From Deltaproteobacteria bacterium (GTDB lineage: Bacteria > CG2-30-53-67), in assembly GCA_013151235.1 (NCBI GenBank), contig JAADIO010000019.1:1-64000 (forward strand): a DNA stretch of 64,000 nt, in the 5' to 3' direction. Both the position numbers and the translations under genes were made by a program. Of the stretch, positions 19,443 to 38,613 are shown piece after piece (within the stretch, counting starts at the first letter, position 1; each line of letters begins with the position of its first letter). Below the pieces are notes generated by a model. The model was not told the origin of the DNA, ran no database searches, and saw only the letters and a list, made by a program, of their open reading frames with translations.

Positions 19443-19570
19443 TGATCCCGCCGCACATACTTCATCTGCGGTGTTTCTTCGGGTTTTTCGTCACGGCAGC
19501 GTATGATCAATATGCCTCATCCCTCGAAAACCTCGCTCCTTGCATCTGAAGCATGTGCAGTGAAATCATC
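19441..19570. mobile_element. MITE-like 130 bp element with imperfect terminal inverted repeats
   Basis: GATGAT..GCACATACTTCA at the left end vs TGAAGCATGTGC..ATCATC at the right end; fills the nadK-trxB gap. Confidence 0.5.
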
Positions 19571-19595
19571 ATTTTTCTAAAAGGATAATGTTTTT

Positions 19596-21739: not shown

Positions 21740-22095
21740 AAGGTGATTGTCTCCCGGTCTATCATCTCTCCTGCGAGGGTCGGGATGTGGGTGACGGTGA
21801 AACCGTCTATGATTTCCTCTTCGGGAATCTCATAGACCTTGACGCAGGCCCCGCAGACGTACATCGGAATTTTGGCTTCAAGGACCATGGGGAACAGTTC
21901 CCGTACCGGGGTCAGATACCTCCCCTCGATCGTGTCGGCAACTCCCTTCCTTGCCATTTTCGCCCCTTCGAAGATGAAGAAGAGGGCCAGGTCCGCCCCT
22001 TCGCTGATAAGGGACGCAGCCAGGGCGATTGCTGCGTTGGATCGGTCCTGGTCGTCGGTGGAATGGGTGATAACGAGCATGATTTTCTTTTTCAT
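21736..22095 (-). CDS. DsrE-family sulfurtransferase-like protein
   Basis: LALFFIFEG and IPMYVCGAC motifs; 119 aa ending TITF. Confidence 0.8.
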   Translation of the reverse strand: MKKKIMLVITHSTDDQDRSNAAIALAASLISEGADLALFFIFEGAKMARKGVADTIEGRYLTPVRELFPMVLEAKIPMYVCGACVKVYEIPEEEIIDGFTVTHIPTLAGEMIDRETITF

Positions 22096-22146
22096 GATGG
22101 TTTCCCCCGTGGAAAGTTAAAAGATCAGACCGTTCATTTGGCCTCT

Positions 22147-23817
22147 TTATCGAAGGAACGGCAGAACATTGGTGAACTTCAGAAAAACAAGCAGGAGCAG
22201 AACGGCCAGACCCCGTTTCAGGAAGACCTCGGGGAGTTTCTTCTGGATCTTCGGCCCGATCTTTCCGCCGATGATCGCTCCCGCCGCGATGAGTGCGGCC
22301 ATGGTCCAGTCCGGCGGATAGCCCATCAGGGCGTAACGGGCGACGCCGCCGATGGAGGTGGCAAAGGTCCCGCAGAGTGAGATCGGAACGGCCAGGTACA
22401 TGGGAAATCCCATGACCGATGTCATGAAGGGGACAAGCATGAAACCGCCCCCCACGCCGAAGGCCGATGCGATACAGCCGATGACGATTCCACCGAAGAA
22501 GAGCGTAATCGGATTTGCGCGGAACTTCTCGCCCCAGAAGGTGAAATCGATTCCCATCGGCTGGAACCGGTCGATCCGGACGGCGCCCATCTCCGCCGTC
22601 CGCCCTTCGGCCCGGGCCTGTTTAACGGCTTCGTTGTATTTGGCCACGATGGCCTTGATTCCCTTCTTTTTGTTGATTCCCTTGCTGGTCGATTCCAGCC
22701 AGAGCTTGACTGCGAGGATCAGGCAGAAGAAACCCAGATAGAATTTATAGGCCTTCATCGGAAGGTAACGGGCCGAGTAGGTTGGGCCGATCCAGAAAGA
22801 GCCGATCAGAATTCCCGAAACGAAACAGAGGGCCACGGGCCAGGCAAGCCGCCGTTCCTTGAAATAGCCCCAGACGCCCGTGATGGGCGAGAAGATGGTC
22901 AAAAATAGGTTGGTCGGCTTGACCATGTTGGCGGCGTTGATTCCGATCATCCCCTGCGTTCCGAGGACGATGATCTGAAAGGCGGCGGTAAAGAGGCCTC
23001 CGGCCGCTCCCATGATGACGAACATGATCCCGATCAAAAGAGCGCCGAGAAAGACCACAAGAGGGTTCATGTAGGTCCCGGCGGCTTTGAAATAATAGCC
23101 GCTGCCGGTGATTTTAAAGTCTCCGGCGATTTGACCGTTGACCGTCACCGCCAGGTCCGTTCCGGGGGCCAGGTTCCGATTGGGGATCAGGGTAACGGAA
23201 TAGTCTCCCGTTGATTTGTCGAGGCGGAGATGGACGTCCCGATTCCATTTCTCCGGGCTTTCAGAGAAGTCGCTCAGGACCATCCGGGTGCTTCCGCCGC
23301 CGATCGGTTTCTCCTTCGAAATCGTGTTCATCCCGAACTTGTCTTCGTGGGCGAAGATCAGCATCTTCCACTGGGCCTCGGTCCGGATGGGGGTGAGCAT
23401 GGATCGGATTTTCGGGGGGATCTTCGTCCAGGGTTTGATCTTGTTGATTTTAACATCGTACCTGAAGGGGGGGAACCATTTGCCCCTCGAGATCATTTGC
23501 GGGTGTGCCAGTGCATCGGGCCTGTTGGTCACGATGTAGCAGGTCGGCGGAATTTCGGTCTCTCCGAATTTGTCCGCGAGTTTCTTTTTCTCTTGGGTTC
23601 CCATTGAGTCGGAACTTTGGAACCCTTTTTCGGCGGCAATTACCACGAAAAGGTCTTCCCCCGGCGGGATCCGTCCCTGCACGGTCATTGCCTCTCCGGC
23701 TCGCAACTGTTCCGTGGAGAGTCTGCCCGTGATCTCCGAGGCTGTTACGGAACCGATCGGCCACAGAACCGATGCGACCCAGATCAGGAGTACTGTAAAG
23801 AGTTTCTTGCGATTCAT
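22147..23817 (-). CDS. TauE/SafE sulfite-exporter-family protein with a large N-terminal extracytoplasmic domain
   Basis: Signal peptide, about 230 aa soluble region, then GAAGGLF and FGVGGGFMLVPF TauE repeats. Confidence 0.82.
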   Translation of the reverse strand: MNRKKLFTVLLIWVASVLWPIGSVTASEITGRLSTEQLRAGEAMTVQGRIPPGEDLFVVIAAEKGFQSSDSMGTQEKKKLADKFGETEIPPTCYIVTNRPDALAHPQMISRGKWFPPFRYDVKINKIKPWTKIPPKIRSMLTPIRTEAQWKMLIFAHEDKFGMNTISKEKPIGGGSTRMVLSDFSESPEKWNRDVHLRLDKSTGDYSVTLIPNRNLAPGTDLAVTVNGQIAGDFKITGSGYYFKAAGTYMNPLVVFLGALLIGIMFVIMGAAGGLFTAAFQIIVLGTQGMIGINAANMVKPTNLFLTIFSPITGVWGYFKERRLAWPVALCFVSGILIGSFWIGPTYSARYLPMKAYKFYLGFFCLILAVKLWLESTSKGINKKKGIKAIVAKYNEAVKQARAEGRTAEMGAVRIDRFQPMGIDFTFWGEKFRANPITLFFGGIVIGCIASAFGVGGGFMLVPFMTSVMGFPMYLAVPISLCGTFATSIGGVARYALMGYPPDWTMAALIAAGAIIGGKIGPKIQKKLPEVFLKRGLAVLLLLVFLKFTNVLPFLR

Positions 23818-23883
23818 GTCTCTCTCCATCCGTGCCCCTTCCATTCGGGCGGGGAGTGCGGCCGGTGATGAACCACTCATCAT

Positions 23884-24210
23884 TTACGGCTTTGAATAGC
23901 GTTCGATGACGGCATCGAGTCTTTTCAGAGGGGGTTCCACCCCGTCATAGAGGATCCCTCCTTCCGCTTCCACCGTTTCGATAAATTCCTTGCCGCTGAC
24001 GATTACCGTGTCTTCCGGTTCCATGAGGCGGCCGTTGATCAGTACGGCGGCCGGCGCCGGATCGTCCGGTTTCCGCTGATCGTCGGGAAGGGTTTCCATC
24101 CGGACATTTTTGTAGGCCTCCATCAGAACGATCGCCATGTCCATGTAAATGCGGCACCGGCCGGCCGGCGGCTGCTTGTTGATGATCTTGATCGTTATAG
24201 ATGGGTTCAC
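23884..24210 (-). CDS. Hypothetical small protein, possibly thioredoxin-like fold
   Basis: RBS AAGGAG before GTG; PPAGRCR and APAAVLING; directly upstream of the TauE gene. Confidence 0.6.
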   Translation of the reverse strand: MNPSITIKIINKQPPAGRCRIYMDMAIVLMEAYKNVRMETLPDDQRKPDDPAPAAVLINGRLMEPEDTVIVSGKEFIETVEAEGGILYDGVEPPLKRLDAVIERYSKP

Positions 24211-24719: not shown

Positions 24720-25244
24720 ATGAAGTTGCAATCCTGCCTGAAAGCAAAGAGATCCGAGATTCTGACAAGATGGCACCGGGTGATCACCGATAGCTATTCC
24801 TCTGAGTCTGTTCCGTTTCTCAATAATCCGGATCCCTTTGCCAATCCTGTTGGAACGACCCTTCTGAAATCGATGGAAACTCTTCTGGATGAACTTCTAT
24901 CCGGAGCGTCTCCTGATCGGCTGGCTCCTGTCCTCGACCGGATTCTCCGCATCCGGGCCGTGCAGGATTTTCTCCCTTCCCAGGCGCTTGCCTTTCTTCC
25001 AGCTCTGAAGGATGTGGTCCGGGAGGTGATCGGAGAGGAGGAGACGGATCCGGTCTCCGAGGAGGTCAGGGAATTCGATGCATTGGTGGATCGGCTGACT
25101 CTCCTTGCCGTGGATATTTATGTGAAGTGCAGGGAGACCATTTATGAAATCCGGGTCCGGGAGTTCAAGGACCGGGCCTATAAACTCCTGGAACGAGCCG
25201 ATCTGGTTTGTGCAGCCGCCCCGGATTCTTCGGGAGGATTGTGA
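24720..25244 (+). CDS. dsrT: DsrT (RsbRD-N-like)
   Basis: DPFANPVG, ILRIRAVQDF and YVKCRETIYEIRV motifs; directly upstream of dsrM. Confidence 0.9.
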   Translation: MKLQSCLKAKRSEILTRWHRVITDSYSSESVPFLNNPDPFANPVGTTLLKSMETLLDELLSGASPDRLAPVLDRILRIRAVQDFLPSQALAFLPALKDVVREVIGEEETDPVSEEVREFDALVDRLTLLAVDIYVKCRETIYEIRVREFKDRAYKLLERADLVCAAAPDSSGGL

Positions 25245-25295
25245 GGATTTGAAACCGGAAAACGAGAAGGACTATTTCAGAGAGGTAAACGTCAG

Positions 25296-26348
25296 ATGAG
25301 AATTTTGCTTCCTTTGATCGCAGTCGTTGTTCTGGGTGCCGTCGCATTTTTGGGGGTGCAGACAGCGGGTTTACAATACTTCTTCGGGGTTGTGATCCCT
25401 TATGCAGCACTGGCGATATTTTTGTTGGGCGTGATCTACAGGATTCTGAGGTGGGCGGCTTCTCCGGTTCCCTTCAGAATCCCGACGACCTGCGGCCAGG
25501 AGAAATCTCTTCCCTGGATCAAAACGGATCCTCTGGAGAGCCCGAACGGCACGGCGGGTGTTATAGGCCGTATGGCGCTGGAGGTCTTTTTTTTCCGTTC
25601 CCTTTTCAGGAACCTGAAGTTCAGGTACAAGGCGGGCGATGGTTCAAATCCTTCCCTGACCTACCGCCGGACTCTCTGGCTCTGGCTCTTCGGTCTCACC
25701 TTCCACTGGTCCTTCCTCTTTGTTTTTGTCCGCCACCTTCGACTTTTTACACAGCCGATCCCCGCTTTTGTCTCGGCGATGAACGGCTGGGATGCAGGCC
25801 TTTCCAACATACTGCAACACTTTAATGTGCCCCCGCTTCATCTTGTCAATATCGTCGGTGCACCTCCCCTGCTGATCTCCGATGTGATCCTTGTAACGGC
25901 CGTGACGCTCCTTTTCCTCCGGAGGGTCTTGATCCCGCAGGTCCGCTATATCTCTCTTCCCGCCGATTATTTTCCGCTGTTCCTCATTTTCGCGATTGCG
26001 CTGAGCGGGATCTGTATGCGCTATTTTTTCAAGGTCGATGTGATTCATATCAAGGAACTGACGATGGGACTTGCCACCTTTCATCCGGTCGTCCCGGAGG
26101 GGATCGACGCCATATTTTTTGTGCATCTGCTTCTTGTCTGTACACTTTTTGCCTACTTTCCGTTCAGTAAGCTGGTCCATATGGCAGGGGTTTTTATGAG
26201 TCCTACGAGGAATCTGGCGAATAACAGCCGGGCAAAAAGGCATGTGAATCCCTGGAATTACCCGGTCAAGCTGCACTCCTATGAAGAGTATGAGGATGAG
26301 TATAGGGAACTGATGAAGAAGGCAGGTATTCCCGTGGAGAAGGATTAG
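25296..26348 (+). CDS. dsrM: DsrM membrane b-type cytochrome
   Basis: PVPFRIPTTCGQEKSLPWI, FHW..RHLR and FPFSKLVHMAGVFMSPTRNLANNSR motifs. Confidence 0.95.
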   Translation: MRILLPLIAVVVLGAVAFLGVQTAGLQYFFGVVIPYAALAIFLLGVIYRILRWAASPVPFRIPTTCGQEKSLPWIKTDPLESPNGTAGVIGRMALEVFFFRSLFRNLKFRYKAGDGSNPSLTYRRTLWLWLFGLTFHWSFLFVFVRHLRLFTQPIPAFVSAMNGWDAGLSNILQHFNVPPLHLVNIVGAPPLLISDVILVTAVTLLFLRRVLIPQVRYISLPADYFPLFLIFAIALSGICMRYFFKVDVIHIKELTMGLATFHPVVPEGIDAIFFVHLLLVCTLFAYFPFSKLVHMAGVFMSPTRNLANNSRAKRHVNPWNYPVKLHSYEEYEDEYRELMKKAGIPVEKD

Positions 26349-26353
26349 AGACT

Positions 26354-27964
26354 ATGGCTAAATACGTTGAGAAACCGGAAGAAACCGCACTGATCAATCA
26401 TCAACCTCCGAAAACCGGGTGGATGGAAACGCCGACGGAGTTCCGTCCGGGCAATTGGTGCTACGGCGGAAAACCCTCGGTACTTGAAGTGCTCGGGATT
26501 CCGAATCCGAGGGAGTGGAAGCCGACGGATGAGGACTGGAAGCTTCCGGCAAACTGGAAGGAGATCATTTACGAAGGATTGAAGGATCGCCTGAGTAAAT
26601 ACAGATCGTTTAAAGTCTTTCTCGACATCTGTGTTCGTTGCGGCGCCTGTGCGGATAAGTGCCACTTCTTTCTCGGGACCGGGGATCCGAAGAATATGCC
26701 CGTCCTTCGTGTGGAGCTTCTCCGTTCGGTTTACCGGAAGGATTTCACCCTGGCCGGAAAGATCCTCGGAAAAATTGCCGGGGCCCGGACCTTGACGAAG
26801 GATGTTGTGAAGGAGTGGTTTTCCTACTATTACCAGTGTACGGAATGCCGCCGCTGTTCCGTGTTCTGCCCCTACGGGATTGATACGGCGGAGATCACGA
26901 TGATGGCGCGGGAACTGCTTCACCTGGTCGGTGTCAATATCAACTGGGCGCTGGAACCGGCGGCCAAATGCTTTCAGACCGGGAACCATATGGGGCTCCA
27001 ACCGCACACCTTCAAGGACAGTATTGATTCCCTTTGTGAAGACATCGAAGATATAACAGGGGTTCATATCGAGGTTCCGCTGAACAAGAAAGGGGCGGAT
27101 GTCCTCTTTATTACGCCATCCGCCGATGTCTTCGCGGACCCGGGGATCTACACCTTCATGGGGTATCTCCTCTTGTTTGAACATATCGGTTTGAATTATA
27201 CCATGAGTACCTATGCCTCCGAGGGCGGGAATTTCGGTCTCTTTAATTCCCAGGAGATCATGAAACGATTAAATGCCAAAATGTACGCGGAGGCAAAGAG
27301 GTTAGGTGTGAAGTGGATTCTGGGCGGGGAATGCGGACACATGTGGCGGGTGGTCCATCAATACATGGATACGATGAACGGCCCCGCAGACTTCCTGGAG
27401 GTGCCGGTCTCTCCGGTTACGGGGACACGATTCGATAACGCCGCCTCCACCAAAATGGTACACATCGCTGAATTTACCGCCGACCTTATTAAACATAACA
27501 AGTTGAAACTCGATCCGAGCCGGAACAACCACCGAAAGACGACCTTCCATGATTCCTGCAATCCCGCCCGTGCGATGGGCATTCTTGAAGAACCGAGATA
27601 CATCCTGAAACATGTCTGCAACCACTTCACCGAGATGCCGAAAAACACGATTCGGGAGAAGACCTTCTGCTGCGGAAGCGGGACAGGACTGAATACGGAC
27701 GAGTACATGGATATCCGGATGCGGGGCGGGCTTCCCCGCGCGAACGCAGTCCGGCATGTCCATGAGCAAAACGATGTCGATCTTTTGACCTGTATCTGTG
27801 CTATTGATCGGGCGACCCTCACCCCTCTGATGCGGTACTGGGTTCCCGGCGTGGAGGTCTCCGGCCTGCATGAGCTGGTCGGGAATGCCCTCGTGATGGA
27901 GGGGGAACAGGAACGGAGCACCGATTTGCGGGAAGATCCTCTGGAGGGGATGGAGGATGTTTAG
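26354..27964 (+). CDS. dsrK: DsrK (Fe-S, CCG domain)
   Basis: CVRCGACADKC, CTECRRCSVFCP, GECGH, FHDSCN, FCCGSG and CAIDR motifs. Confidence 0.95.
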   Translation: MAKYVEKPEETALINHQPPKTGWMETPTEFRPGNWCYGGKPSVLEVLGIPNPREWKPTDEDWKLPANWKEIIYEGLKDRLSKYRSFKVFLDICVRCGACADKCHFFLGTGDPKNMPVLRVELLRSVYRKDFTLAGKILGKIAGARTLTKDVVKEWFSYYYQCTECRRCSVFCPYGIDTAEITMMARELLHLVGVNINWALEPAAKCFQTGNHMGLQPHTFKDSIDSLCEDIEDITGVHIEVPLNKKGADVLFITPSADVFADPGIYTFMGYLLLFEHIGLNYTMSTYASEGGNFGLFNSQEIMKRLNAKMYAEAKRLGVKWILGGECGHMWRVVHQYMDTMNGPADFLEVPVSPVTGTRFDNAASTKMVHIAEFTADLIKHNKLKLDPSRNNHRKTTFHDSCNPARAMGILEEPRYILKHVCNHFTEMPKNTIREKTFCCGSGTGLNTDEYMDIRMRGGLPRANAVRHVHEQNDVDLLTCICAIDRATLTPLMRYWVPGVEVSGLHELVGNALVMEGEQERSTDLREDPLEGMEDV

Positions 27965-28071
27965 CCGGGCCGGATATCCGGCTTCATCCGGTGGACAATA
28001 ATTCAAAATTATGAGAAGAGGTTTGGACCTCTTGATTTTCTTTAATCACACATGTTATGGAGGATTCAAGA

Positions 28072-28407
28072 ATGGCAACACTTGAAGTCAATGGAAAACA
28101 GTATGAACTGGATGAAGACGGTTTTCTGGCGGACATGAGCGAATGGAATGAGGACATTGCCGTTGCTCTGGCCAAGACCGAAAGCGTTGAAATGACCGAA
28201 GCCCATTGGGAGGTCGTCAATTTTCTGCGTGACTATTATGCCGAGTACAAAATTGCTCCTATGATCCGGATTCTGACCAAGGCGATCGGTAAGAAGCTGG
28301 GCAAGGAGAAAGGGAACACCAAGTATCTCTACGAGCTCTACCCGGCGGGACCGGCCAAGCAGGCCTGTAAAATTGCAGGGCTGCCCAAACCGACCGGTTG
28401 TGTGTAA
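28072..28407 (+). CDS. dsrC: DsrC
   Basis: DEDGFL; C-terminal ACKIAGLPKPTGCV with both conserved Cys. Confidence 0.96.
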   Translation: MATLEVNGKQYELDEDGFLADMSEWNEDIAVALAKTESVEMTEAHWEVVNFLRDYYAEYKIAPMIRILTKAIGKKLGKEKGNTKYLYELYPAGPAKQACKIAGLPKPTGCV

Positions 28408-28415
28408 AAGCAGAC

Positions 28416-28441
28416 GGCGGGGTTCCTCCCGCCTTATTATT
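28416..28441 (+). terminator. Hairpin after dsrC (weak terminator or stabiliser)
   Basis: GGCGGG-GTTCCT-CCCGCC followed by TTATTATT. Confidence 0.45.
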
Positions 28442-28593
28442 TCGATAAGAAAAGACCGGAGGGGGATGTTGAATCGTCGTCCCCGGTTACTCAAACGTAC
28501 CTTTGCAGGCTGAGGGGGTACGGGGAATGGCGGGCTCTTTCGGGTTCATGTGGAAGAGCAACGATATCTTTTTATACTTATGATGGAGGGGAG

Positions 28594-28950
28594 ATGAAAT
28601 TCGGAATTCTCATTCAGGAAGGCCCCTATAATCACCAGGCTTCGGATAGCGCTTATAATTTCATCCAGGCGTCACTGGAGAAAGGGCACGAGATCACCGG
28701 CGTATTCTTCTATAATGACGGTGTCATCAATACCACGAAGCTGATGGACATCCCTGCAGACGACCGGCACATCAGTAAACGCTGGTCTGAGTTGGGGGCG
28801 AAGGGGATCCAGTTAATCGTCTGCGTGGCGGCGGCCAAACGGCGGGGGATCAATCCCGACGTGTTGATTGATAATGCCCGTATCGACGGACTGGGGCAGC
28901 TCAGTGAGCTTTGTATTGAATCCGACCGATTGATCACGTTCGGTGACTGA
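28594..28950 (+). CDS. dsrE: DsrE/TusD
   Basis: GPYNHQASDSAYNF, VFFYNDGV and IVCVAAAKRRGI (active-site Cys). Confidence 0.93.
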   Translation: MKFGILIQEGPYNHQASDSAYNFIQASLEKGHEITGVFFYNDGVINTTKLMDIPADDRHISKRWSELGAKGIQLIVCVAAAKRRGINPDVLIDNARIDGLGQLSELCIESDRLITFGD

Positions 28951-28978
28951 TCGTCTCAGAAAGGAGCCGGAGACTCAA

Positions 28979-29350
28979 ATGGAAGAACAAGCGCCAAGGA
29001 AAATTATGTTTGTGAATCGAAAGGCACCGCATGGTTCCATCTATGCCTACGAAGGACTGGAAGTCATTCTCATCTTTGGGGCCTATGACCAGGAAATCAG
29101 CGCTGCATTTCTGGATGATGCCGTCCTTTCGTTGAAAAAAGGTCAGGATACATCTGAAATCGGGACCAAGGAGTTTTCTGCGACCTTCCGTGTGTTGGAA
29201 GCCTACGGGGTGGAAAACCGTTACGTGGAGAGGGAATCTCTGGAACAGCGCGGGCTGACGGAGGAAGACTTGGTCATGGATGTGGACGTTGTTGATGGAG
29301 CGACCCTCCGGAAATATATGGGAGAACAAGACGTCCTGCTGCCCTTTTAG
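28979..29350 (+). CDS. dsrF: DsrF/TusC
   Basis: FVNRKAPHGSIYAYEGLE, DDAVLSLKKGQ and RGLTEEDL motifs. Confidence 0.93.
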   Translation: MEEQAPRKIMFVNRKAPHGSIYAYEGLEVILIFGAYDQEISAAFLDDAVLSLKKGQDTSEIGTKEFSATFRVLEAYGVENRYVERESLEQRGLTEEDLVMDVDVVDGATLRKYMGEQDVLLPF

Positions 29351-29380
29351 TGATGTGGATACCTGCAAGGAGGAAGAACA

Positions 29381-29674
29381 TTGCTGCATATCGTGAATAA
29401 ATCACCATTTAAATACAGAAATCTGGATACCTGCGTACGCGTCTCTGAGAAAGAGGACCCAATCATTCTCATTGAAGATGGTGTCTACGCCGCCCTGAAG
29501 GGGTCCAGTATTGAAGGGCTCATGAAGAAGACCCTGGAGGACCACCCTGTTTTTGCAATCCGGGCGGATCTCAAGGCCCGGGGAATCGACGAGGTTATGG
29601 AGGGGGTAGAAGTCTGTGATTACTCCTGCTTTGTGGATATGGTGGAAAAGCATGTCCCCTATTCCTGGCTTTGA
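29381..29674 (+). CDS. dsrH: DsrH/TusB
   Basis: MLHIVNKSPF..LDTC, LIEDGVYAA and DLKARGI motifs. Confidence 0.93.
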   Translation: MLHIVNKSPFKYRNLDTCVRVSEKEDPIILIEDGVYAALKGSSIEGLMKKTLEDHPVFAIRADLKARGIDEVMEGVEVCDYSCFVDMVEKHVPYSWL

Positions 29675-29680
29675 GTCTGG

Positions 29681-30334
29681 ATGAGGAATGACAAAGCGGC
29701 GGCGAAGAAGCTGCTTCGGGAAGGCCGTTACCCGGAAATTCTCAGTCGTCTTGGAGAGAAGCGAAGGACCGTTCGTCTGCTCCGGTCTCTCCTGTATGAA
29801 GATGAACGGATCATAAAATGGCGGGCCGTGACCATGTTCGGCCGGTTGGCCCGGGAAAACCCGGAACTGATCATTCCGGAAGTGGATCGACTCATCTGGT
29901 CCCTGAATGATGAAGCCGGGAGTATTGGACGAAGCGCACCGGAAACCCTGGGTGAAATTGCCCGGAACAATGCACGGATCGCCCGGGATGGGGGAAAGGT
30001 CGTTGTTCACTACATTGAAGATACAGAGACCTGCCGTCCTCCGAACCGGAATCTCGAAATTCTTGTCGGTGTCCTCTGGGCGATAGGGAGAATCGGTGAA
30101 CGGCGGCCGGAGGAGGTGGAGGAGGTCCTTACAACGGTCGAGAGCTTCTGTAAAGACCCGGACGCCAATGTCCGGGGGCATGCTCTCTGGGCTCTTGGAC
30201 GAACGCGGGTGGCCGGATTTATTGAATCGATTCGAAATTGCATGGATGACGCCGGCAGTGTAATTATCTACGAAGATGAATGGTTAAGGTCTTGTACCGT
30301 GGGACAACTCGCGCAGGACGCTTTGCGACAATAG
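29681..30334 (+). CDS. HEAT-repeat protein (DVU0298-like)
   Basis: KWRAVTMFG, RLIWSLNDEAGSIGRSAPETLGEI and DPDANVRGHALWALG. Confidence 0.75.
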   Translation: MRNDKAAAKKLLREGRYPEILSRLGEKRRTVRLLRSLLYEDERIIKWRAVTMFGRLARENPELIIPEVDRLIWSLNDEAGSIGRSAPETLGEIARNNARIARDGGKVVVHYIEDTETCRPPNRNLEILVGVLWAIGRIGERRPEEVEEVLTTVESFCKDPDANVRGHALWALGRTRVAGFIESIRNCMDDAGSVIIYEDEWLRSCTVGQLAQDALRQ

Positions 30335-30472: not shown

Positions 30473-31693
30473 ATGGCAGATCAAAAATTAAGAGAAACTC
30501 CTCTTCTTGACGAGTTGAAGAAAGGCCCCTGGCCGAGTTTCGTCAACGACATGAAGAAGATGGCCGAACGGAAACCGATGATCAATGATCTTCTGGGACA
30601 GCTTGAGCTTTCTTACAAGGAGAAAAAGGGGCATTGGAAGCATGGTGGGCTCGTTGGCGTCATGGGATACGGCGGCGGGGTCATTGGGCGTTATTCCGAT
30701 GCCGCCGAGCAGTTCCCCGCCTGTGCGCATTTCCATACCATTCGTGTGAACCAGCCTTCCGGATGGTTTTACACTTCTGCGGCTCTCCGTGAACTTTGTG
30801 ATATCTGGGACCGGCATGGATCGGGTATGACGAACATGCATGGATCCACGGGCGACTGCGTCTTCCTGGGAACGACCACGGACGAGCTGGAGCCGATCTT
30901 TGCCGAGCTGACCGCCAAGGACTGGGATTTGGGCGGGTCCGGCTCCGATGTCCGGACGCCGAGCTGCTGTAACGGGATGGCCCGCTGTGAATATGCCTGC
31001 TACGATACCATGGATGCCTGTTATAACTTTACCATGGAGTATCAGGATGAGCTGCATCGTCCGGCCTTCCCTTATAAATGGAAGTTCAAATTCTCCGGTT
31101 GTCCCAATGATTGCGTGGCCTCGATTGCCCGTTCCGATATGTCCGTGATCGGGACTTGGCGGGATGATATCCGGATCGATCAGGCTGCCGTGCAAGAATA
31201 TGCCGACAGCGGCATGGAGATTCGTTCGGATGTGATTCGCAAATGTCCGACCTCCTGCATGAGCTACGACGGCAAGGAGATCACGATCGACAACAAGAAC
31301 TGCACTCGCTGCATGCACTGCATCAATGTCATGCCCAAAGCCCTTCGGCCCGGACTGGACAAGGGGGCGACGCTGCTGATCGGTGCCAAGGCCCCGATTA
31401 TTGAAGGAGCGCTTCTCGCCACGGTTCTCGTTCCCTTTATCAAGATGGACAAGGAGGATGATTACCAGGAATTCAAGGACCTGATCGAGCGGATCTGGGA
31501 TTTCTGGGATGACCATGGTGTGAATCGTGAACGGATCGGTGAATGTATTGAGCGTGTAGGGCTGGGGAATTTCCTCGAAGCAATCGAGGCCGATCCTCTG
31601 CCGGAGCATGTCAAGCATCCTCGTACGAACCCCTACATCTTCTACGATGAATATTTTGAGGAAGTGGATGACGCCGAGGCGGAGAAAGCATGA
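30473..31693 (+). CDS. dsrA: Dissimilatory sulfite reductase alpha subunit, reductive bacterial type
   Basis: [41 protein letters not shown] and [26 protein letters not shown] motifs. Confidence 0.97.
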
Positions 31694-31770
31694 TGCTTTC
31701 GGCAGGCAGTGGGGAGAATGCAAAGAGATAACGATTTTGAATTGATCATACACATTAGGAGGAAAAGGAA

Positions 31771-32856
31771 ATGGCTGAACCTGCAGCACCGAGAAAAACC
31801 GATATCGGACCGCCTCAATATGACCAGTTTCTCCATCCGGTCATTAAGAAGAACTACGGAAAGTGGAAATACCACGAGATTCTGAAACCGGGCGTCATGG
31901 TCCATGTCTCCGAAACGGGCGACAAGATCTATTCTATTCGTGTGGGGTCCCCCCGCCTGATCAGTGTCGATGTGATTCGGATGTTTGCCGATATGGCCGA
32001 CAAGTATTGTGACGGATATCTTCGTTTTACGAGCCGGAACAATGTCGAGTTCCTGACCGACAAGGAAGGGAATATCGATCCTCTGATCAAGGACATTCAG
32101 GCCAACGGTTTTCCCGTGGGCGGAACGGGAAACTCCATTTCAAATATTATTCACACCCAGGGATGGGTTCATTGTCACTCTGCGGCAACCGATGTTTCTG
32201 GTGTGGTGAAAGCGACGATGGACGACCTCTATGAGTACTTTGTGGAGATGAAACTTCCCCACAAGATCAAGATTGCGGCGGCTTGCTGCCTCAATATGTG
32301 TGGGGCCGTTCACTGCTCCGATATTGCCATTCTGGGGATTCACCGGCGTCCGCCTCAGATCGACGACGCGCAAGTTTCAAACGTCTGTGAGATTCCGACG
32401 ACCGTTTCGTCCTGTCCCACGGCGGCGATTCGTCCGACGACGGTTGAAGGCAAGCAGACCGTCAAGGTTGACGGCGACCGGTGCATGTTCTGTGCGAACT
32501 GCTACACGGTCTGCCCGGCCATGCCGATTGCCGATCCGCTGAACGACGGCATCTCGATCTGGGTCGGCGGCAAGGTCTCCAATGCCCGTTCGGAGCCTAT
32601 GTTCACGAAGCTGGCGGTTCCCTTTATTCCGAACAATCCGCCCCGCTGGCCGGAAGTGACTGAGGCGATCAAGAAGATCGTTGAGGTCTATGCCGCCGGT
32701 GCACAGCGTTACGAACGGCTTGGGGAATGGATTGACCGTATCGGCTGGCCGCAATTCTTTGATCTGACCGGATTTGAATTCACGAAATATCATATTGATG
32801 ATTTCAGGCATGCAGGCGAGACCTTCCATCGGTCCGCCCAGATCAAATTCAAATAG
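31771..32856 (+). CDS. dsrB: Dissimilatory sulfite reductase beta subunit
   Basis: [38 protein letters not shown] and PNNPPRWP motifs. Confidence 0.97.
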
Positions 32857-32866
32857 GAGAATGATT

Positions 32867-33112
32867 ATGTCGGAAATGACGACCGAGCAGATTGCGGATG
32901 AGATGTTCAACCTGGTGAAGGAGTATGCAGGGAAGAAGCGTTTCAAGGCGACCGACCTCACCAAAGAAGTTATTGCCAAGCATGGTGACAGTGTCAACAA
33001 AAAGGCCTGCAAGGCAGCGCTTCGTACCTTAATGGATTCCGGACGCTGTGTTTACGGCTATGCCGGTGGGAGTTTTATTTCACTTCCCGGGATAGAAGGT
33101 GCAGCCAAGTAA
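32867..33112 (+). CDS. dsrD: DsrD
   Basis: 81 aa directly after dsrB; KKRFKATDL..KAALRTLMDSGRCVYGYAGGSFISLP winged-helix-like pattern; RBS AGGAGA. Confidence 0.85.
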   Translation: MSEMTTEQIADEMFNLVKEYAGKKRFKATDLTKEVIAKHGDSVNKKACKAALRTLMDSGRCVYGYAGGSFISLPGIEGAAK

Positions 33113-33167
33113 TCAAGGCGCTTTCATCGGACTGATCTTATGATTCGTTATTGAATGTGTTTGAACG

Positions 33168-33262
33168 GATAGCCGGTCGACGCGGGACCCAAGGTCGGCT
33201 CTGTCGGGTGTCCGGCTATCTTTTCCTCTTTTGCGGAACAAAGTTCCGCAAAAGAGGAAAAG
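33168..33262. other. Tandem stem-loops between dsrD and dsrL
   Basis: GATAGCCGG..CCGGCTATC (33168-33220) and a perfect 20 bp stem CTTTTCCTCTTTTGCGGAAC-AAA-GTTCCGCAAAAGAGGAAAAG (33220-33262). Confidence 0.75.
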
Positions 33263-33398: not shown

Positions 33399-35087
33399 AT
33401 GGCGATTGTGGTGAGAAAAATACAGCGCAAGATCGGACTGAGGCGGGGCGGCAGGGGAACGCAGACATCGACGCAACGGCCGCAGTATAATTTGAAGGAG
33501 TCTCCCTGTATTCATGCTTGTCCGAGCGGTGAGGATATCCGTGCGTATCTGGTGCAGATTGCCCAGACCGAAAAATATGACTGGTCCTATGATGATGCCT
33601 TCAAAGAAGCCTGGTATACGATCACGGACAAGAACCCCTTTCCCGCCGTTATGGGAAGGGTCTGTCCTCACCCTTGTGAAAGTGAGTGCAACCGGAAAGA
33701 CAAGGATGCCGCCGTGGGGATCAACAACATGGAGCGGTTCATCGGTGACTATGGTATCAAGAATAAACTGAAACTGAAGAAGGTGGACGGAGAGGGTGGT
33801 TCGGAAAAAGTCGCCGTGGTTGGTGCCGGTCCTTCCGGGCTTTCCTGTGCATACCAGTTAGCCCGTCGGGGTTATTCCGTAACGGTATTCGAAATGTTTG
33901 ACAAGGGAGGCGGGATGCTTCGTTTCGGGATCCCCGTCTACCGCCTTCCCGATGATGTTCTCGATGCTGAAATTCAGCGGATCGCTGAGATGGGGGTTGA
34001 GATTAAGTACAACACCAAGATCGGTCGGGATATCACCTTTGCGGATTTGAAGAAGGATTATAAGGCGATCTATCTCTCCATCGGTGCGCACACCGGATGG
34101 GATATGAATATCCCCGGTGAGGATGCCGGGAATGTATTGACCGGCGCCGATTATCTCCACAAAATCAATGCCGGGGAAAAGGTGGAAATCGGGAATAAGG
34201 TGGTGGTGATCGGTGGTGGTGATACCGCTATTGATGCCGCCATGACTTCACTCCGCCTTGGGGCGGATGTTACGCTTCTTTATCGGCGGACCCGGAACGA
34301 GATGCCGGCCATCGACCATGATATTACCCTGGCCGAAGAGGAAGGGATCAATTTTGAATTTCTGTCTGCTCCGGTGGAGGTGATCAAAAACGGAGACGGG
34401 AAGGCGACGGCACTGAAATGCCTTAAGATGGAATTAGGTGAACCGGATGATTCGGGCCGTAGAAGGCCGGTCCCGATCGAAGGTTCGGAGTATACCGTTG
34501 ATGCGACGGCTATCATCTCCGCCATTGGCCAGGCCCCGGATTGGGAAGGCCTGGATTCCTTTAAAAACGAAAAAGGCTGGATTACCGCCGACGATCACGG
34601 GATTACGGAAACGGCCGGTGTCTTTGCCGGGGGGGATGTGACGGTCGGATTGGGCATTGCCACGCAGGCTATTGGTCTCGGGCGGAAGACGGCGGAAGCT
34701 ATTCATCATTTTCTTCGGGACGAAGAGGTTCCGGAACCGGAAACGCTGCCGGTTGTTCATTCCGATGCCATGAACCTCGGTCATTATGTTTCGCTGGAAC
34801 GGCAGAATGAAAAATACCTTCCGGCGGATGATCGGAAGACCAATTTCAATGAGCTGCGCTTTGCCTTGACCGAGGAACAGGCGATTGAAGAGGCGAAACG
34901 ATGCATGAGCTGTGGCCGATGTTTTGACTGTGACAACTGTTTTACCTTCTGTTCCGACAGTGCTGTCAAGAAGCTTGATAAAAATGAAAATCCCTTCGGT
35001 CAGCATTATAAATTTGTCCTCGATACCTGTCAGGGATGCAAAAAGTGTGCGGAAGAATGTCCTTGCGGCTACATTGATATGGTCTGA
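33399..35087 (+). CDS. dsrL: DsrL iron-sulfur flavoprotein (DsrL-2-like, YRR motif)
   Basis: SPCIHACPSGEDIR, GRVCPHPCE, GAGPSG, GGGDTA, LYRR; C-terminal CMSCGRCFDCDNC and CQGCKKCAEECPCG ferredoxin domain. Confidence 0.92.
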   Translation: MAIVVRKIQRKIGLRRGGRGTQTSTQRPQYNLKESPCIHACPSGEDIRAYLVQIAQTEKYDWSYDDAFKEAWYTITDKNPFPAVMGRVCPHPCESECNRKDKDAAVGINNMERFIGDYGIKNKLKLKKVDGEGGSEKVAVVGAGPSGLSCAYQLARRGYSVTVFEMFDKGGGMLRFGIPVYRLPDDVLDAEIQRIAEMGVEIKYNTKIGRDITFADLKKDYKAIYLSIGAHTGWDMNIPGEDAGNVLTGADYLHKINAGEKVEIGNKVVVIGGGDTAIDAAMTSLRLGADVTLLYRRTRNEMPAIDHDITLAEEEGINFEFLSAPVEVIKNGDGKATALKCLKMELGEPDDSGRRRPVPIEGSEYTVDATAIISAIGQAPDWEGLDSFKNEKGWITADDHGITETAGVFAGGDVTVGLGIATQAIGLGRKTAEAIHHFLRDEEVPEPETLPVVHSDAMNLGHYVSLERQNEKYLPADDRKTNFNELRFALTEEQAIEEAKRCMSCGRCFDCDNCFTFCSDSAVKKLDKNENPFGQHYKFVLDTCQGCKKCAEECPCGYIDMV

Positions 35088-35224
35088 ACCTCCGGGGGAA
35101 GAACCACGGTAATCCATGATGTTGCCGTCCGGGCTTGGCCGTGCTGAAAAAGAGTTCCGGGTGTTGTTCACGGAACAAGCTTTTTGTTTGCTGCCGGGTA
35201 TGACGAGATCCACAAGGAGTCAAA

Positions 35225-35689
35225 ATGGAAGAAATTACGTTCAATGAAATCATCAGCTATGCGAAGATCGCGGAAGAGAATGCGAAAAGCTTTTATTTGA
35301 ATGCCGCAGAAGAGATGGAACAGCGAAATGTGAAAGAATATCTTGAAACGCTGGCGGCGGAGGAGCAGACTCACATTAACCGCCTTGAGGCCCTGCAGAA
35401 GACCATCCAGAGCCGGGGAGAGGTTCCCGATCTTCATTCGGAGATCCGGAGTCTCGGCTACGCGGATTTCATCAAGGCTGCCGAACTCGGCAAAGATGCT
35501 TCCTATAAGGATGTCTTGGTCGTTGCCATGTCCAACGAGAAAGAGGCCATCCGGAACTATGACAATTTTTCCCGTTTTATCGATAACGAAGAGGCCAAAA
35601 AACTGTTCACGGTCCTGGCCGACGAAGAACGTCGTCATCTGAAACGATTTGAAGAAGAGTATGACGAACTCCAGGACCAAAATTATTAA
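35225..35689 (+). CDS. Ferritin-like/rubrerythrin diiron domain protein
   Basis: Two E..FY/Y...ExxH units (EEQTH, EERRH); no rubredoxin domain. Confidence 0.85.
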   Translation: MEEITFNEIISYAKIAEENAKSFYLNAAEEMEQRNVKEYLETLAAEEQTHINRLEALQKTIQSRGEVPDLHSEIRSLGYADFIKAAELGKDASYKDVLVVAMSNEKEAIRNYDNFSRFIDNEEAKKLFTVLADEERRHLKRFEEEYDELQDQNY

Positions 35690-35717
35690 ACCAAACCGGG
35701 ATTGAGGGTAAACCATA

Positions 35718-36569
35718 ATGTATGAAATTCTGGAAAAGAAGGTGTGGCAGGAAGAGAAGCCGAGAATTACGGAGTTCAAGGTCAATGCGCCGGAGATTGC
35801 CCGCGCTCACCAAGCGGGCCAGTTTGTGATCCTCATTGTCGACGAGAACGGAGAGCGGATTCCCCTGACCATTGCCGACAAGGACGCGGAAAAAGGGACC
35901 ATCAATATTCTCTTTCAGGAGGTGGGGAAGTCTACGATCTGTCTGGGCAAGCTGGAAGTGGGAGAGAAGATCCATCACGTTACGGGGCCGTTGGGTAAAC
36001 CGACCCATGTGGAGAAGTTCGGTACCGTTGTCTGTGTCGGTGGAGGGATCGGAATCGCTCCGGTCCATCCCATTGCCAAGGCGATGAAGGATGCCGGCAA
36101 CAAGGTGATTTCCATTCTCGGATCTCGATCAAAGGACCTGCTGATCTATGAAGACAAGATGAATGCGGCCAGCAGTGAGGTCCGCGTGACTACGGATGAC
36201 GGGACCTACGGCCGTCACGGTTTTGTGACCGATGAACTCAAGGCAATGATTGAAGAAGAAAAGATCCCCATCGATCTGGTGGTCGTGATTGGACCTCCGA
36301 TCATGATGAAGTTCGTCTGCAAGGTGACGGAACCGCACAAGATCAAGACCTTTGCCAGCCTGAATACGATCATGGTAGACGGGACCGGGATGTGCGGTGC
36401 CTGCCGTGTGACCGTCGGGGGGAAGACCAAGTTTGTCTGTGTGGACGGACCGGAATTTGACGGGCATCAGGTCGATTTTGAAGAGATGATGATGCGCCAG
36501 AAACAGTATCTCACGGAAGAAAAAATCGCCGTGGAACGCTGTGGGAAAGGGGCCTGCCATCAGGGTTGA
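35718..36569 (+). CDS. nfnA: NfnA/SudB small subunit (FAD/NAD-binding, 2Fe-2S)
   Basis: AGQFVIL, ERIPLTIAD, GGGIGIAP and MVDGTGMCGACRV..CVDGPEFDG motifs. Confidence 0.9.
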   Translation: MYEILEKKVWQEEKPRITEFKVNAPEIARAHQAGQFVILIVDENGERIPLTIADKDAEKGTINILFQEVGKSTICLGKLEVGEKIHHVTGPLGKPTHVEKFGTVVCVGGGIGIAPVHPIAKAMKDAGNKVISILGSRSKDLLIYEDKMNAASSEVRVTTDDGTYGRHGFVTDELKAMIEEEKIPIDLVVVIGPPIMMKFVCKVTEPHKIKTFASLNTIMVDGTGMCGACRVTVGGKTKFVCVDGPEFDGHQVDFEEMMMRQKQYLTEEKIAVERCGKGACHQG

Positions 36570-36669
36570 AAGATCCGTGTTGACGGCTTTCGCTGAAAGT
36601 CCGTCTGTCGCGGTCATCCGGCATTCTGCTTAAAACCATCAACATAAGTTCTGGAGAGGATTCATAAGA

Positions 36670-38145
36670 ATGAGTGATGAGAAACAGCTAAAAGGGGCCT
36701 CAAAGGCGAAACCGAAGAGACCGAAAATCCCCCGTCAGGCAATGCCGGAACAGGATCCGCATGTCCGGGCGAAAAACTTTGATTCCGTTACGCTGGGGTA
36801 TACCGATGAACAGGCGATAGCGGAAGCCACGCGGTGTCTTCAGTGCAAGAAACCCTTCTGCATACAGGGGTGTCCTGTTTCAATCAACATCCCCGGTTTT
36901 ATTCAGGCAATCAAGGACCGTGATTATGCAAAGGCGGTCCAGGTCATCAAGGAGACAAATCTTCTGCCGGCGGTCTGCGGACGAGTCTGTCCACAGGAAG
37001 AGCAGTGCGAGAACAGATGTATCCTGGGTAAAAAACAAGAGCCTGTTGCGATCGGCCGATTGGAGCGTTTTGTGGCGGATTATGAAGCCGCTCACGGTGA
37101 ATCGCCGTTGCCGGAGCTTCCGTCGAAGACGGGAAAGAAGGTTGCCGTGGTCGGTGCCGGTCCGGGGGGGTTGACGGTTGCAGGCGATCTGATCCGTAAA
37201 GGACATGATGTGACCGTCTTCGAGGCCCTCCACAAGGCGGGCGGTGTTCTGGTGTATGGAATCCCGGAATTCCGGCTGCCCAAGGCGATCGTGGAACGGG
37301 AAGTCGATTATCTGAAAAAGCTTGGCGTTGTTTTCAAAATGAACCATGTGATCGGGAAGATCCGGACCATCGATCAATTGATGAAGGAAGACGGGTTTGA
37401 TGCTGTTTTTATCGGGAGCGGCGCCGGTCTGCCCTGGTTCATGGATATTCCCGGTGAGAACTTGAATGGAGTTTTCTCCGCGAATGAATACCTGACCCGG
37501 AACAATCTGATGAAAGCCTTTGATTTTCCGAACTATGATACCCCGATCAAACGGTTTAAGAATGTTGCCGTGATCGGTGGTGGGAATGTGGCCATGGATT
37601 CCGTTCGGACGGCTCTTCGACTGGGAGCCGACAATGCCTACATTGTTTATCGACGAGGACGGGAAGAGATGCCGGCCCGGAAAGAGGAAGTGGATCATGC
37701 CGAGCATGAAGGGGTGCAGTTTAAGAACCTGACAGCCCCCGTGCGGATCCTCGGGAATGAAGACGGTTGGGTGACGGGCCTGGAATGCCTTAAAATGGAA
37801 TTAGGTGAACCGGACGCCTCTGGACGGCGCCGTCCGATCCCGATCGAGGGCTCGGAATTTGTTCTGGATATGGATGCCGTAATCATTGCGATCGGGACCA
37901 GTGCCAATCCTCTGATCGGCCAGACCACGCCGGATCTGAAACTGAGCCGTCGAGGTTACATTGAGGTCGAAAATGAGACTACCGGCCGCAGCAGCAAGAA
38001 AGGGGTTTTCGCCGGAGGAGACATCGTAACCGGTGCGGCAACCGTGATCCTGGCGATGGGAGCGGGACGAAATGCCGCCAATGCCATTCAGCAATACCTG
38101 GAGACGGGTGAATGGTGGACGCCGAACGGCGACGGCGAAAAGTAG
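36670..38145 (+). CDS. nfnB: NfnB/SudA large subunit (GltD-like)
   Basis: EATRCLQCKKPFCIQGCPV, CGRVCPQEEQCE, YGIPEFRLP, YRR and GAATVILAMGAG motifs; adjacent to nfnA with no gltB. Confidence 0.9.
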   Translation: MSDEKQLKGASKAKPKRPKIPRQAMPEQDPHVRAKNFDSVTLGYTDEQAIAEATRCLQCKKPFCIQGCPVSINIPGFIQAIKDRDYAKAVQVIKETNLLPAVCGRVCPQEEQCENRCILGKKQEPVAIGRLERFVADYEAAHGESPLPELPSKTGKKVAVVGAGPGGLTVAGDLIRKGHDVTVFEALHKAGGVLVYGIPEFRLPKAIVEREVDYLKKLGVVFKMNHVIGKIRTIDQLMKEDGFDAVFIGSGAGLPWFMDIPGENLNGVFSANEYLTRNNLMKAFDFPNYDTPIKRFKNVAVIGGGNVAMDSVRTALRLGADNAYIVYRRGREEMPARKEEVDHAEHEGVQFKNLTAPVRILGNEDGWVTGLECLKMELGEPDASGRRRPIPIEGSEFVLDMDAVIIAIGTSANPLIGQTTPDLKLSRRGYIEVENETTGRSSKKGVFAGGDIVTGAATVILAMGAGRNAANAIQQYLETGEWWTPNGDGEK

Positions 38146-38166: not shown

Positions 38167-38208
38167 AAAAAAGGCCGATGAGAGGTTTCTCATCGGCCTT
38201 TTCCTTTT
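38167..38208. terminator. Bidirectional rho-independent terminator
   Basis: AAAAAA-GGCCGATGAGA-GGTT-TCTCATCGGCC-TTTT between convergent genes. Confidence 0.9.
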
Positions 38209-38247: not shown

Positions 38248-38613
38248 TTAAAAGGGCAAAATTACCTCCTGTTTTTTCATAAAGGCCATGATTTCGGCGG
38301 ACTCCAGAACTTCCACGTCAATCATGAGATCTTCGACGGTTAATCCTCGTTCTGTGAGTGCGGTTTTGTCTACGATGATCCGTTCGACTCCATAGTCTTC
38401 CAGGACCCGAAAAGCACTGGAAAACGCCTTAGTTCCCAATTCCATTGTATCCTGCCCTTTTTTCAGCACATAGACTCCGTCATCCATCAAGACCAAGGTG
38501 ATCGCTTGTTCATATGTACAGAAGATCAGGAGCGCCTCCAATCCTTCATGGGTATATATCGTTCCATGAGGCGCCTTCCTCATGAGAAAGGTTATTTTCT
38601 TCTTTTTGGACAT
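38248..38613 (-). CDS. dsrF: Second DsrF/TusC paralog
   Basis: RKAPHGTIYTHEGLE, DDGVYVLKKGQD and RGLTVEDL; colinear with the 28979 copy. Confidence 0.9.
   Translation of the reverse strand: MSKKKKITFLMRKAPHGTIYTHEGLEALLIFCTYEQAITLVLMDDGVYVLKKGQDTMELGTKAFSSAFRVLEDYGVERIIVDKTALTERGLTVEDLMIDVEVLESAEIMAFMKKQEVILPF

Follow-up and report, generated by a model that had tools for sequence, protein, structure and literature searches.

DsrL-2 passes electrons from NADPH to the sulfite reductase DsrAB (PMC7596348; PMC8794893), and activity with NADP(H) and not NAD(H) has been shown for the DsrL-2 of Desulfurella amilsii (PMC7596348). Published work on relatives describes NfnAB as a flavin-based bifurcating enzyme that converts NADH plus reduced ferredoxin into NADPH and back. 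Here we describe a locus where genes for both stand together: in a 64,000-nucleotide stretch of a Deltaproteobacteria bacterium genome (assembly GCA_013151235.1, contig JAADIO010000019.1, positions 1 to 64,000; hereafter the window), dsrL is followed by a ferritin-like gene, nfnA and nfnB (33,399 to 38,145). On balance we favor the view that co-expressed NfnAB supplies, via the NADPH pool, electrons that this DsrL, of type DsrL-2C, passes to DsrAB. Articles cited by PMC number are represented by extracts, and statements about their content, above all about what they omit, apply to those extracts.

The nearest described organism is Nitrospirae bacterium CG2_30_53_67 (candidate phylum CG2-30-53-67; PMC7596348, PMC10591310, PMC11406059), whose gene set is that of the window genome: two dsrAB sets, two DsrL-2, a reductive dsrABD-dsrL-2C and dsrTMK...CEFH. 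To judge from these shared genes, the window is very probably a member of that lineage. Unlike in that description, dsrTMKCEFH and dsrABDL form one cluster in the window. The extracts of these papers mention no nfnAB, ferritin gene or RNA element next to dsrL, and that of PMC7596348 treats Nfn only as a structural relative of DsrL. D. amilsii likewise combines an NADP(H)-specific DsrL-2 and reductive DsrAB with abundant NfnAB in the same organism (PMC7596348, PMC6378623), but there dsrL-2 and nfnAB are unlinked (locus tags 1432 versus 1852-1853), and in the extracts the authors assign NfnAB a transhydrogenase role and a place in the roTCA cycle rather than a role with DsrL. The Nfn of Thermotoga maritima (4YLF/4YRY) and the NfnI of Pyrococcus furiosus (5JCA) resemble the window's in their separate nfnA and nfnB, in all cofactor motifs checked, in the flavin-N5 arginine and in YRR; the window differs in the dedicated ferritin-like gene that precedes nfnA and in the placement within a dsr cluster. 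The list of nfn neighborhoods in a review holds, as extracted, no dsr genes and no ferritin (PMC6405883). Its Clostridium kluyveri case, nfnAB beside crt/bcd/etf/hbd1, follows the same logic of a transhydrogenase next to an NADPH-dependent catabolic step, whereas in the window it is a respiratory sulfite reductase that would use the NADPH. Neither the dsrL-nfnAB linkage nor an RNA element between dsrD and dsrL was found described in the literature searched, a search that left subscription papers, figures and supplements outside its scope; dsrL neighbors could be visible in gene-map figures such as that of Tan et al. 2019 (cited in PMC7596348). The locus is a real, family-wide dsr variant assembled from known parts and apparently undescribed, and the conserved RNA boundary between dsrD and dsrL is new.

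Genes of the dsrL-nfnAB segment

The features on which the argument turns are as follows.

30473..32856, + strand: dsrA and dsrB, reductive bacterial type (TIGR02064/TIGR02066 above cut-off), followed by dsrD
32861..33112, + strand: dsrD, 83 aa (position 3' of dsrB; 40-87% identity to same-position genes in other dsr clusters)
33166..33262, + strand: double-hairpin RNA element, P1 33168-33220 and P2 33220-33262 (folding, covariation, conservation)
33399..35087, + strand: dsrL, classed as DsrL-2C, NADP(H) type; 562 aa (PRK12771, 641.8 bits against a cut-off of 516)
35225..35689, + strand: gene for a ferritin-like di-iron protein, 154 aa (Pfam Rubrerythrin PF02915)
35718..36569, + strand: nfnA, NADH/FAD/[2Fe-2S] subunit (PDB matches, motifs)
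36670..38145, + strand: nfnB, NADPH/bifurcating FAD/2x[4Fe-4S] subunit (PDB matches, motifs)
38169..38202, both directions: predicted bidirectional intrinsic terminator between nfnB and a convergent dsrF-like gene (15-17 bp stem; z -6.1)

Judged by the sequence criteria of PMC7596348 (four domains, YRR, Ser/Thr at the site of NfnB Cys39 and Arg at that of Cys42) and PMC10591310, the window protein is a DsrL-2C, the NADP(H) type that accompanies reductive DsrAB. The complete gene, in a genome with dsrAB, encodes N-terminal Fe-S, FAD/NAD(P), linker and C-terminal 2x[4Fe-4S] domains; by alignment YRR lies at 295-297 and S24/R27 occupy the NfnB C39/C42 sites. It is encoded beside reductive dsrAB and dsrD and is not linked to POR genes. 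The reductive type of DsrAB was assigned by identity and the adjoining dsrD, without a DsrAB reference tree: DsrB is 64-72% identical to that of loci bearing dsrD, and dsrAB is 52-55% identical to a second dsrAB on contig C27 of the same genome. The dsrD call itself drew no match in Pfam and NCBIfam searches. DsrL-like proteins at three other loci (L095-L097), which hold no dsrAB, have CRE where YRR would stand, and their Cys42 site is occupied by Leu.

Among PDB sequences, NfnA matched the P. furiosus NfnI small subunit best (326 bits), followed by T. maritima 4YLF (254) and the NfnII-type 5VJ7 (185), while NfnB matched 4YLF_B (590 bits) and 5JCA_L (518) ahead of 5VJ7 (485) and GltD (313). 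NfnA has both the ERxPxT and DGTGMCGxCRx10CV motifs listed in PMC6405883. NfnB has RCx2Cx4Cx3CPV, and by alignment its R202 corresponds to T. maritima Arg187 (flavin-N5) and its YRR lies at 327-329; the spacer of the second NfnB motif is 11 residues long versus 13 in that review. The pair reads as a canonical NfnAB of pattern A, NfnI-like and nearer NfnI than NfnII or the glutamate synthase small subunit, subject to the review's caution that Nfn function cannot be deduced from sequence alone (PMC6405883). A GltD identity for nfnB was ruled out, given glutamate synthase-like genes on contig C54 and a PDB ranking that places Nfn first. NfnA proteins 72-80% identical to the window's occur in Nitrospirota/Nitrospinota genomes.

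The adjacency of these genes raises the question of whether NfnA could dock on DsrL instead of NfnB, wiring a bifurcating enzyme directly to DsrAB. DsrL and NfnB are ~40% identical, and the flavin-N5 arginine persists in DsrL as R182, a residue that aligns to the NfnB site and is retained in all loci examined. A hybrid NfnA-DsrL complex of this kind had been floated in the earlier note, but finds no support in the sequences, and we regard it, or any higher-order assembly, as very improbable. An intact nfnB, 84-94% identical, follows nfnA throughout the family described below; the NLMKAFDFPNYDTP segment common to the window NfnB and those of T. maritima and P. furiosus, which we take to lie at the NfnA interface, is missing from DsrL; and DsrL-2C occurs in genomes with no nfnA match. 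Coupling of the two enzymes would instead run through the soluble NADP(H) pool.

Conservation within one family

The DsrL search covered 41 genomes, nine of which, the window's own included, belong to one family and span five genera. In all nine, dsrL, the ferritin-like gene and nfnA are contiguous, and nfnA is single-copy and located at the dsrL locus; seven are unbroken to nfnB, and in the remaining two the contig ends inside nfnA and nfnB was found on another contig. This conservation of order in relatives argues that the arrangement did not arise by chance, and the co-orientation of dsrL (with YRR), ferritin-like gene, nfnA and nfnB claimed in the earlier note is borne out by four + strand calls. 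The full + strand order in the window annotation is dsrT-M-K-C-E-F-H-HEAT-A-B-D, dsrL, ferritin-like gene, nfnA, nfnB. Throughout the family nfnAB stands behind the reductive dsrABD-dsrL-2C and never behind an oxidative dsrL. A metagenome search with the ferritin gave 18 loci, of which four show the whole cluster, three of the four being near-identical. Among eight sequences, NfnA forms the same tree groupings as DsrA and DsrL, and the mean distance of NfnA/NfnB (0.14) is similar to that of DsrA.

The sister family offers a contrast. Its five genomes (84-100% complete) each hold a single oxidative-like dsrB (48-51%), a DsrL with SAV where YRR stands, no match in a dsrD search and no nfnA-level match.

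The double hairpin between dsrD and dsrL

The dsrD-dsrL spacer contains a conserved block amid otherwise divergent sequence, which folds at -56.1 kcal/mol (33166-33261; z -7.9, with 0/200 shuffles as stable). P1 is a terminator-like stem followed by a U-tract, and P2, of ~20 bp, pairs with that tract. The tract has 4-5 U directly after the stem and is short, interrupted and paired by P2; a consensus terminator scan caught only an inner sub-hairpin. Across ten element sequences the fold z ranges from -0.1 to -9.0, and in two genomes (L005, L041) P2 is weak or partly deleted. Covariation was scored on a structure drawn from the same ten sequences, which favors it: 87.8% of cells are paired, a level that 0/500 shuffles reach and that falls to 43-55% in slid controls, and 10 of 27 pairs have changed on both sides (eight in P2, two in P1).

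A model of the element finds one locus per genome in the nine family members, as it must by construction, none in the five sister-family genomes, no match in other dsrL loci among 87 sources and, in another small phylum considered below, only weak matches away from dsrD. Rfam returned no family at gathering score; the only matches were weak ones to miRNA models, at 21-22.5 bits where the cut-offs stand at 66.7-84. When the sequence after dsrD is put to a crude terminator test, seven of nine family sequences pass, as do 11 of 56 loci from elsewhere, a set that includes one truncated family locus. A break after dsrD is thus not unique to the family; the double-hairpin element, as judged from these searches, is.

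Because P2 is transcribed after the U-tract, it cannot prevent termination. The simplest reading is that the double hairpin mediates partial termination with stabilized downstream RNA, or serves as a nuclease site, and under either the boundary would group dsrL with ferritin-nfnAB, apart from dsrABD. Within the window genome none of the three spacers between dsrL and nfnB is more stably folded than its shuffles (z -0.49, +1.27 and -0.93), strong hairpins flank the dsrL-nfnB segment on both sides, and the ferritin-nfnA spacer measures 26-30 nt in eight of nine family genomes. Placing the only strong terminator after nfnB, as had been proposed before, is accurate inside the dsrL-nfnB segment of this genome, where the spacers are unstructured. 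It does not hold for the dsr cluster overall, being contradicted by the stronger dsrD-dsrL structure just upstream of 33399 and by a terminator-like hairpin 3' of dsrC (28416-28433). We envisage a single transcript segment for dsrL, the ferritin gene and nfnAB, with partial termination or processing at the double hairpin setting its abundance against that of dsrABD.

The dsrL-ferritin spacer shows nothing conserved beyond a ribosome-binding site; a pattern we take to be the Rex box matched twice in the window against 2.7 expected, with none near the locus; and a sigma-70 scan of the window gave 10 sites against 11.9 expected. In one relative (L039, 4438-4738) dsrL and the ferritin gene are separated by an insert of 301 nt, which is rich in AT, contains a long inverted repeat and may be a small mobile element.

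The ferritin-nfnAB cassette and a probable source of NADPH

The ferritin-like protein has a rubrerythrin-type four-helix domain in 154 aa and zero cysteines, and so no C-terminal rubredoxin domain. E17, E47-H50, E105 and E135-H138 are invariant in all nine family genomes; the two ExxH motifs and two further Glu agree with what we take to be the rubrerythrin/erythrin di-iron ligand pattern. Its subfamily occurs in 11 of 401 genomes, the nine family members and two of another small phylum. In that phylum five of six genomes hold ferritin-nfnA-nfnB, with NfnA 73-82% identical, and these five also have a reductive-type dsrB (5/5) and DsrL-2C (4/5; the fifth contig ends in dsrB). The cassette stands behind a divergent gene in both small-phylum genomes whose flank was read. 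In nine more metagenome loci, five of which extend ~1 kb or more upstream, ferritin-nfnA stands without a dsrL match on that side. In both lineages nfnA follows the ferritin-like gene wherever downstream sequence existed.

Because the same cassette exists away from dsr, gene order assigns the ferritin gene to Nfn and not to dsr: ferritin-nfnAB is a unit of its own, which stands behind dsrL only in this family. A role of the ferritin as a dsr gene is ruled out by the stand-alone ferritin-nfnA loci in metagenomes and the small phylum. The occurrence of DsrL-2C in both lineages with this Nfn subtype fits a functional tie, two lineages being a thin sample. TTGACA/TTGACG lies upstream of both stand-alone cassettes and is lacking in eight aligned linked spacers, an observation of little weight. 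A second, different ferritin-like gene (~29% identical) lies 3' of nfnB in five of nine family genomes (L036, L037, L038, L039, L041).

The constant company of ferritin gene and nfnA in both lineages could point to an oxidative-stress unit, in which NfnAB gives electrons to the di-iron protein and peroxide or oxygen is thereby cleared from around the oxygen-sensitive Dsr enzymes. The second ferritin-like gene after nfnB would suit such a unit, as would the existence of an NCBIfam model for Nfn-ferritin fusions (PRK12775), although the model matches the ferritin-like protein weakly (E 7.5e-4) and no longer, fused forms of the subfamily occurred among 7999 scored candidates, itself weak evidence. 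The cassette has neither a rubredoxin domain nor a rubredoxin partner, and the position of the boundary before dsrL would go unexplained; we give this explanation very little credence. We instead picture the ferritin-like protein as a putative accessory of this Nfn subtype, in iron supply or peroxide defense for Fe-S enzymes.

What, then, would NfnAB do behind dsrL? By an equation in PMC6378623, each sulfite consumes two electrons at the DsrAB/DsrC step, and because DsrL-2 uses NADPH, a respiratory NADPH demand is to be expected. The window's genome (99% complete) encodes AprA, ACS/CODH, three 2-oxoacid:ferredoxin oxidoreductases, Rnf and hydrogenases, and gave no match to PntB. Sources of reduced ferredoxin and NADH are therefore at hand, and with no PntB match NfnAB is the likeliest NADPH supplier. 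In the scheme we favor, the ferritin-nfnA-nfnB cassette became attached to the end of the reductive dsr cluster, directly behind an NADP(H)-type dsrL. NfnAB would confurcate (reduced ferredoxin + NADH + 2 NADP+ -> 2 NADPH), refilling the NADPH spent by DsrL, ~1 per sulfite if DsrL gives both electrons of the DsrAB/DsrC step. The NADPH link of NfnAB to DsrL-DsrAB suggested in the earlier note thus gains from family-wide conservation, single-copy nfnAB, the sister-family contrast and the RNA boundary; as a general module it fails.

That failure, and several other observations, weigh against the scheme. In a genome scan of 79 dsrL loci, drawn from the best 80 of at least 614 matches, 63 were dsr-linked, and of these only L048, a family-level relative with 71% DsrL identity, has nfnA. 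At the remaining 62, of which 51 have at least 2 kb and 40 at least 9 kb of downstream sequence, nfnA was absent, the usual neighbors being dsrC, a CobB/DsrN-type amidase and a HEAT protein. The survey of dsrL neighborhoods by which the link was to be judged therefore divides, with nfnAB linked in close relatives and unlinked in all other lineages sampled; on this sequence sample, the linkage is one evolutionary event at family level and not a general dsr module. Elsewhere in the genome, nfnA was found in 42 of 50 other DsrL-2C genomes (50 of 65 intended), a count in the scheme's favor, but not in the other eight, nor in eight of 28 dsrB genomes, many of those lacking it being incomplete. In 201 genomes of one phylum nfnA occurs in 20/28 dsrB-positive and 69/173 dsrB-negative members, again in the scheme's favor (Fisher p 0.002, a value that treats kin as independent and is confounded by anaerobic lifestyle); it is also common without dsr, and in 0/20 genomes carrying both do nfnA and dsrB share a contig. 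The small phylum keeps its cassette on contigs other than dsr, and the L039 insert, with its long hairpin, separates dsrL from the ferritin gene in one relative. NfnB distances correlate weakly with those of DsrA/DsrL (Spearman 0.43-0.45), as do those of the ferritin (0.28-0.30). A direct source of NADPH could be the group 3b-like hydrogenase encoded at C25:68766-72818, and the genome's Wood-Ljungdahl cluster also needs reductant. Finally, sulfite reduction paid for with ferredoxin is energetically costly.

Much of this would be expected under positional clustering, in which NfnAB is a general NADPH source for the Wood-Ljungdahl pathway and biosynthesis, and the cassette landed behind dsrL once and was retained since the same anoxic conditions call for both; DsrL would then take NADPH from any source, for example the group 3b-like hydrogenase. 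Confinement of the linkage to one family, the stand-alone cassettes elsewhere, the frequency of nfnA in genomes without dsrB and the presence of Wood-Ljungdahl and hydrogenase genes are all in its favor. What renders it unlikely, albeit a serious contender, is that the cassette has been held in place over five genera while neighboring parts changed: dsrJOP is missing in two genomes, the second ferritin is present in five of nine, and the oxidative cluster has moved. Moreover, the sister family, whose DsrL is of NAD type, yielded no nfnA match, and the conserved boundary precedes dsrL, not the cassette.

The direction of flow might also be reversed. The genome holds a second, oxidative-like dsrAB-dsrL (C27:27814-31946, - strand; 47-55% identical) whose DsrL also has YRR, and in two relatives, G005 and G004 (L034, L040), reductive and oxidative-like clusters share one contig. 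NfnAB could therefore act as a two-way hub, mainly bifurcating during sulfur oxidation or disproportionation, with NADPH from an NADP-type DsrL, be it the window's or that of C27, yielding NADH and reduced ferredoxin for carbon fixation and Rnf. Besides the second DsrL, the dsrEFH genes within the same cluster and the presence of Rnf and ACS/CODH suit this proposal, and direction switching has been proposed for such genomes (PMC7596348, PMC10591310). The invariable position of nfnAB behind the reductive and never the oxidative dsrL speaks against it, as does the other phylum with the cassette, which showed only reductive-type dsrB and no dsrEFH in four mapped clusters; we consider it improbable.

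Returning to NfnAB as supplier of NADPH to DsrL, a bolder extension, which we put forward as a long shot, treats dsrL-ferritin-nfnAB as a separately controlled electron-entry module, with the hairpin as switch or processing site and DsrL plus NfnAB forming a two-step bifurcation loop. Were this true, NADPH-driven sulfite reduction could be turned on and off without changing DsrAB, in a bacterium running sulfur metabolism both ways, and DsrL could return a low-potential electron to ferredoxin via its kept bifurcation arginine, making NADPH-driven sulfite respiration affordable.

Although DsrL-2 is reported to need NADPH, the literature extracts are silent on how NADPH would be made at respiratory rates. 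A lineage with its only transhydrogenase behind dsrL names a candidate source, and DsrABD, DsrC, DsrL, NfnAB and ferredoxin make a compact, expressible set for an in vitro test. This lineage is among those proposed to stand where Dsr metabolism passes from reductive to oxidative, and its conserved RNA element provides a first handle on how Dsr direction might be controlled. The finding is bounded by its single family and single event, and all its proteins come from known families.

Two further features complete the dsr region.

24720..30334, + strand: upstream dsr block of dsrT, dsrM, dsrK, dsrC, dsrE, dsrF, dsrH and a DVU0298-family HEAT protein (NCBIfam/Pfam matches)
38248-38613, - strand: convergent dsrF-like gene (TusC/DsrF match)

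The dsrT call stems from an RsbRD_N match plus position. The upstream block is without dsrJOP, which are missing between dsrK and dsrC (within 24720-28407) here and also in G005; G001 has dsrJOP-like genes in a 2.3-2.4 kb dsrK-dsrC insert that is present in four relatives, and JOP-like genes of ~40% identity lie on contigs C25 and C39. The window genome's DsrM/DsrK are closer to those of G005 (84%/93%) than to those of its own genus (62%/82%), identities which suggest that dsrTMK was replaced in this genome. The convergent gene is a stand-alone dsrF/tusC paralogue, 56% identical to DsrF and without E and H partners, which recurs at the same place in several relatives; a second long hairpin spans its stop codon.

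Further upstream, NAD kinase-like and thioredoxin reductase-like genes (18594-20516, + strand; also in G005, L034 1253-3109) constitute further NADP(H)-related genes near the dsr region. The divergent block at 20579-24210 (- strand) comprises a small gene, a 578-aa protein with a C-terminal TauE/SafE domain and long N-terminal extension, a DsrE-like protein and a multiheme cytochrome. On other contigs, the C27 DsrL has a ~30-residue insert before YRR, and groES/groEL-like open reading frames (ORFs) at the end of C19 (29950-31327, - strand) differ in style from the rest and are possibly a foreign piece. In the wider dsrL survey, an nfnA-like match at L120 (31%) was rejected as a hydrogenase gamma subunit near a POR-linked DsrL-like gene. 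A putative gene, grouped as one ORF cluster (mostly 143-215 aa), recurs immediately 5' of dsrL at 22 loci from other phyla (L050-L123); the one member scanned had no NCBIfam match at E 1e-12.

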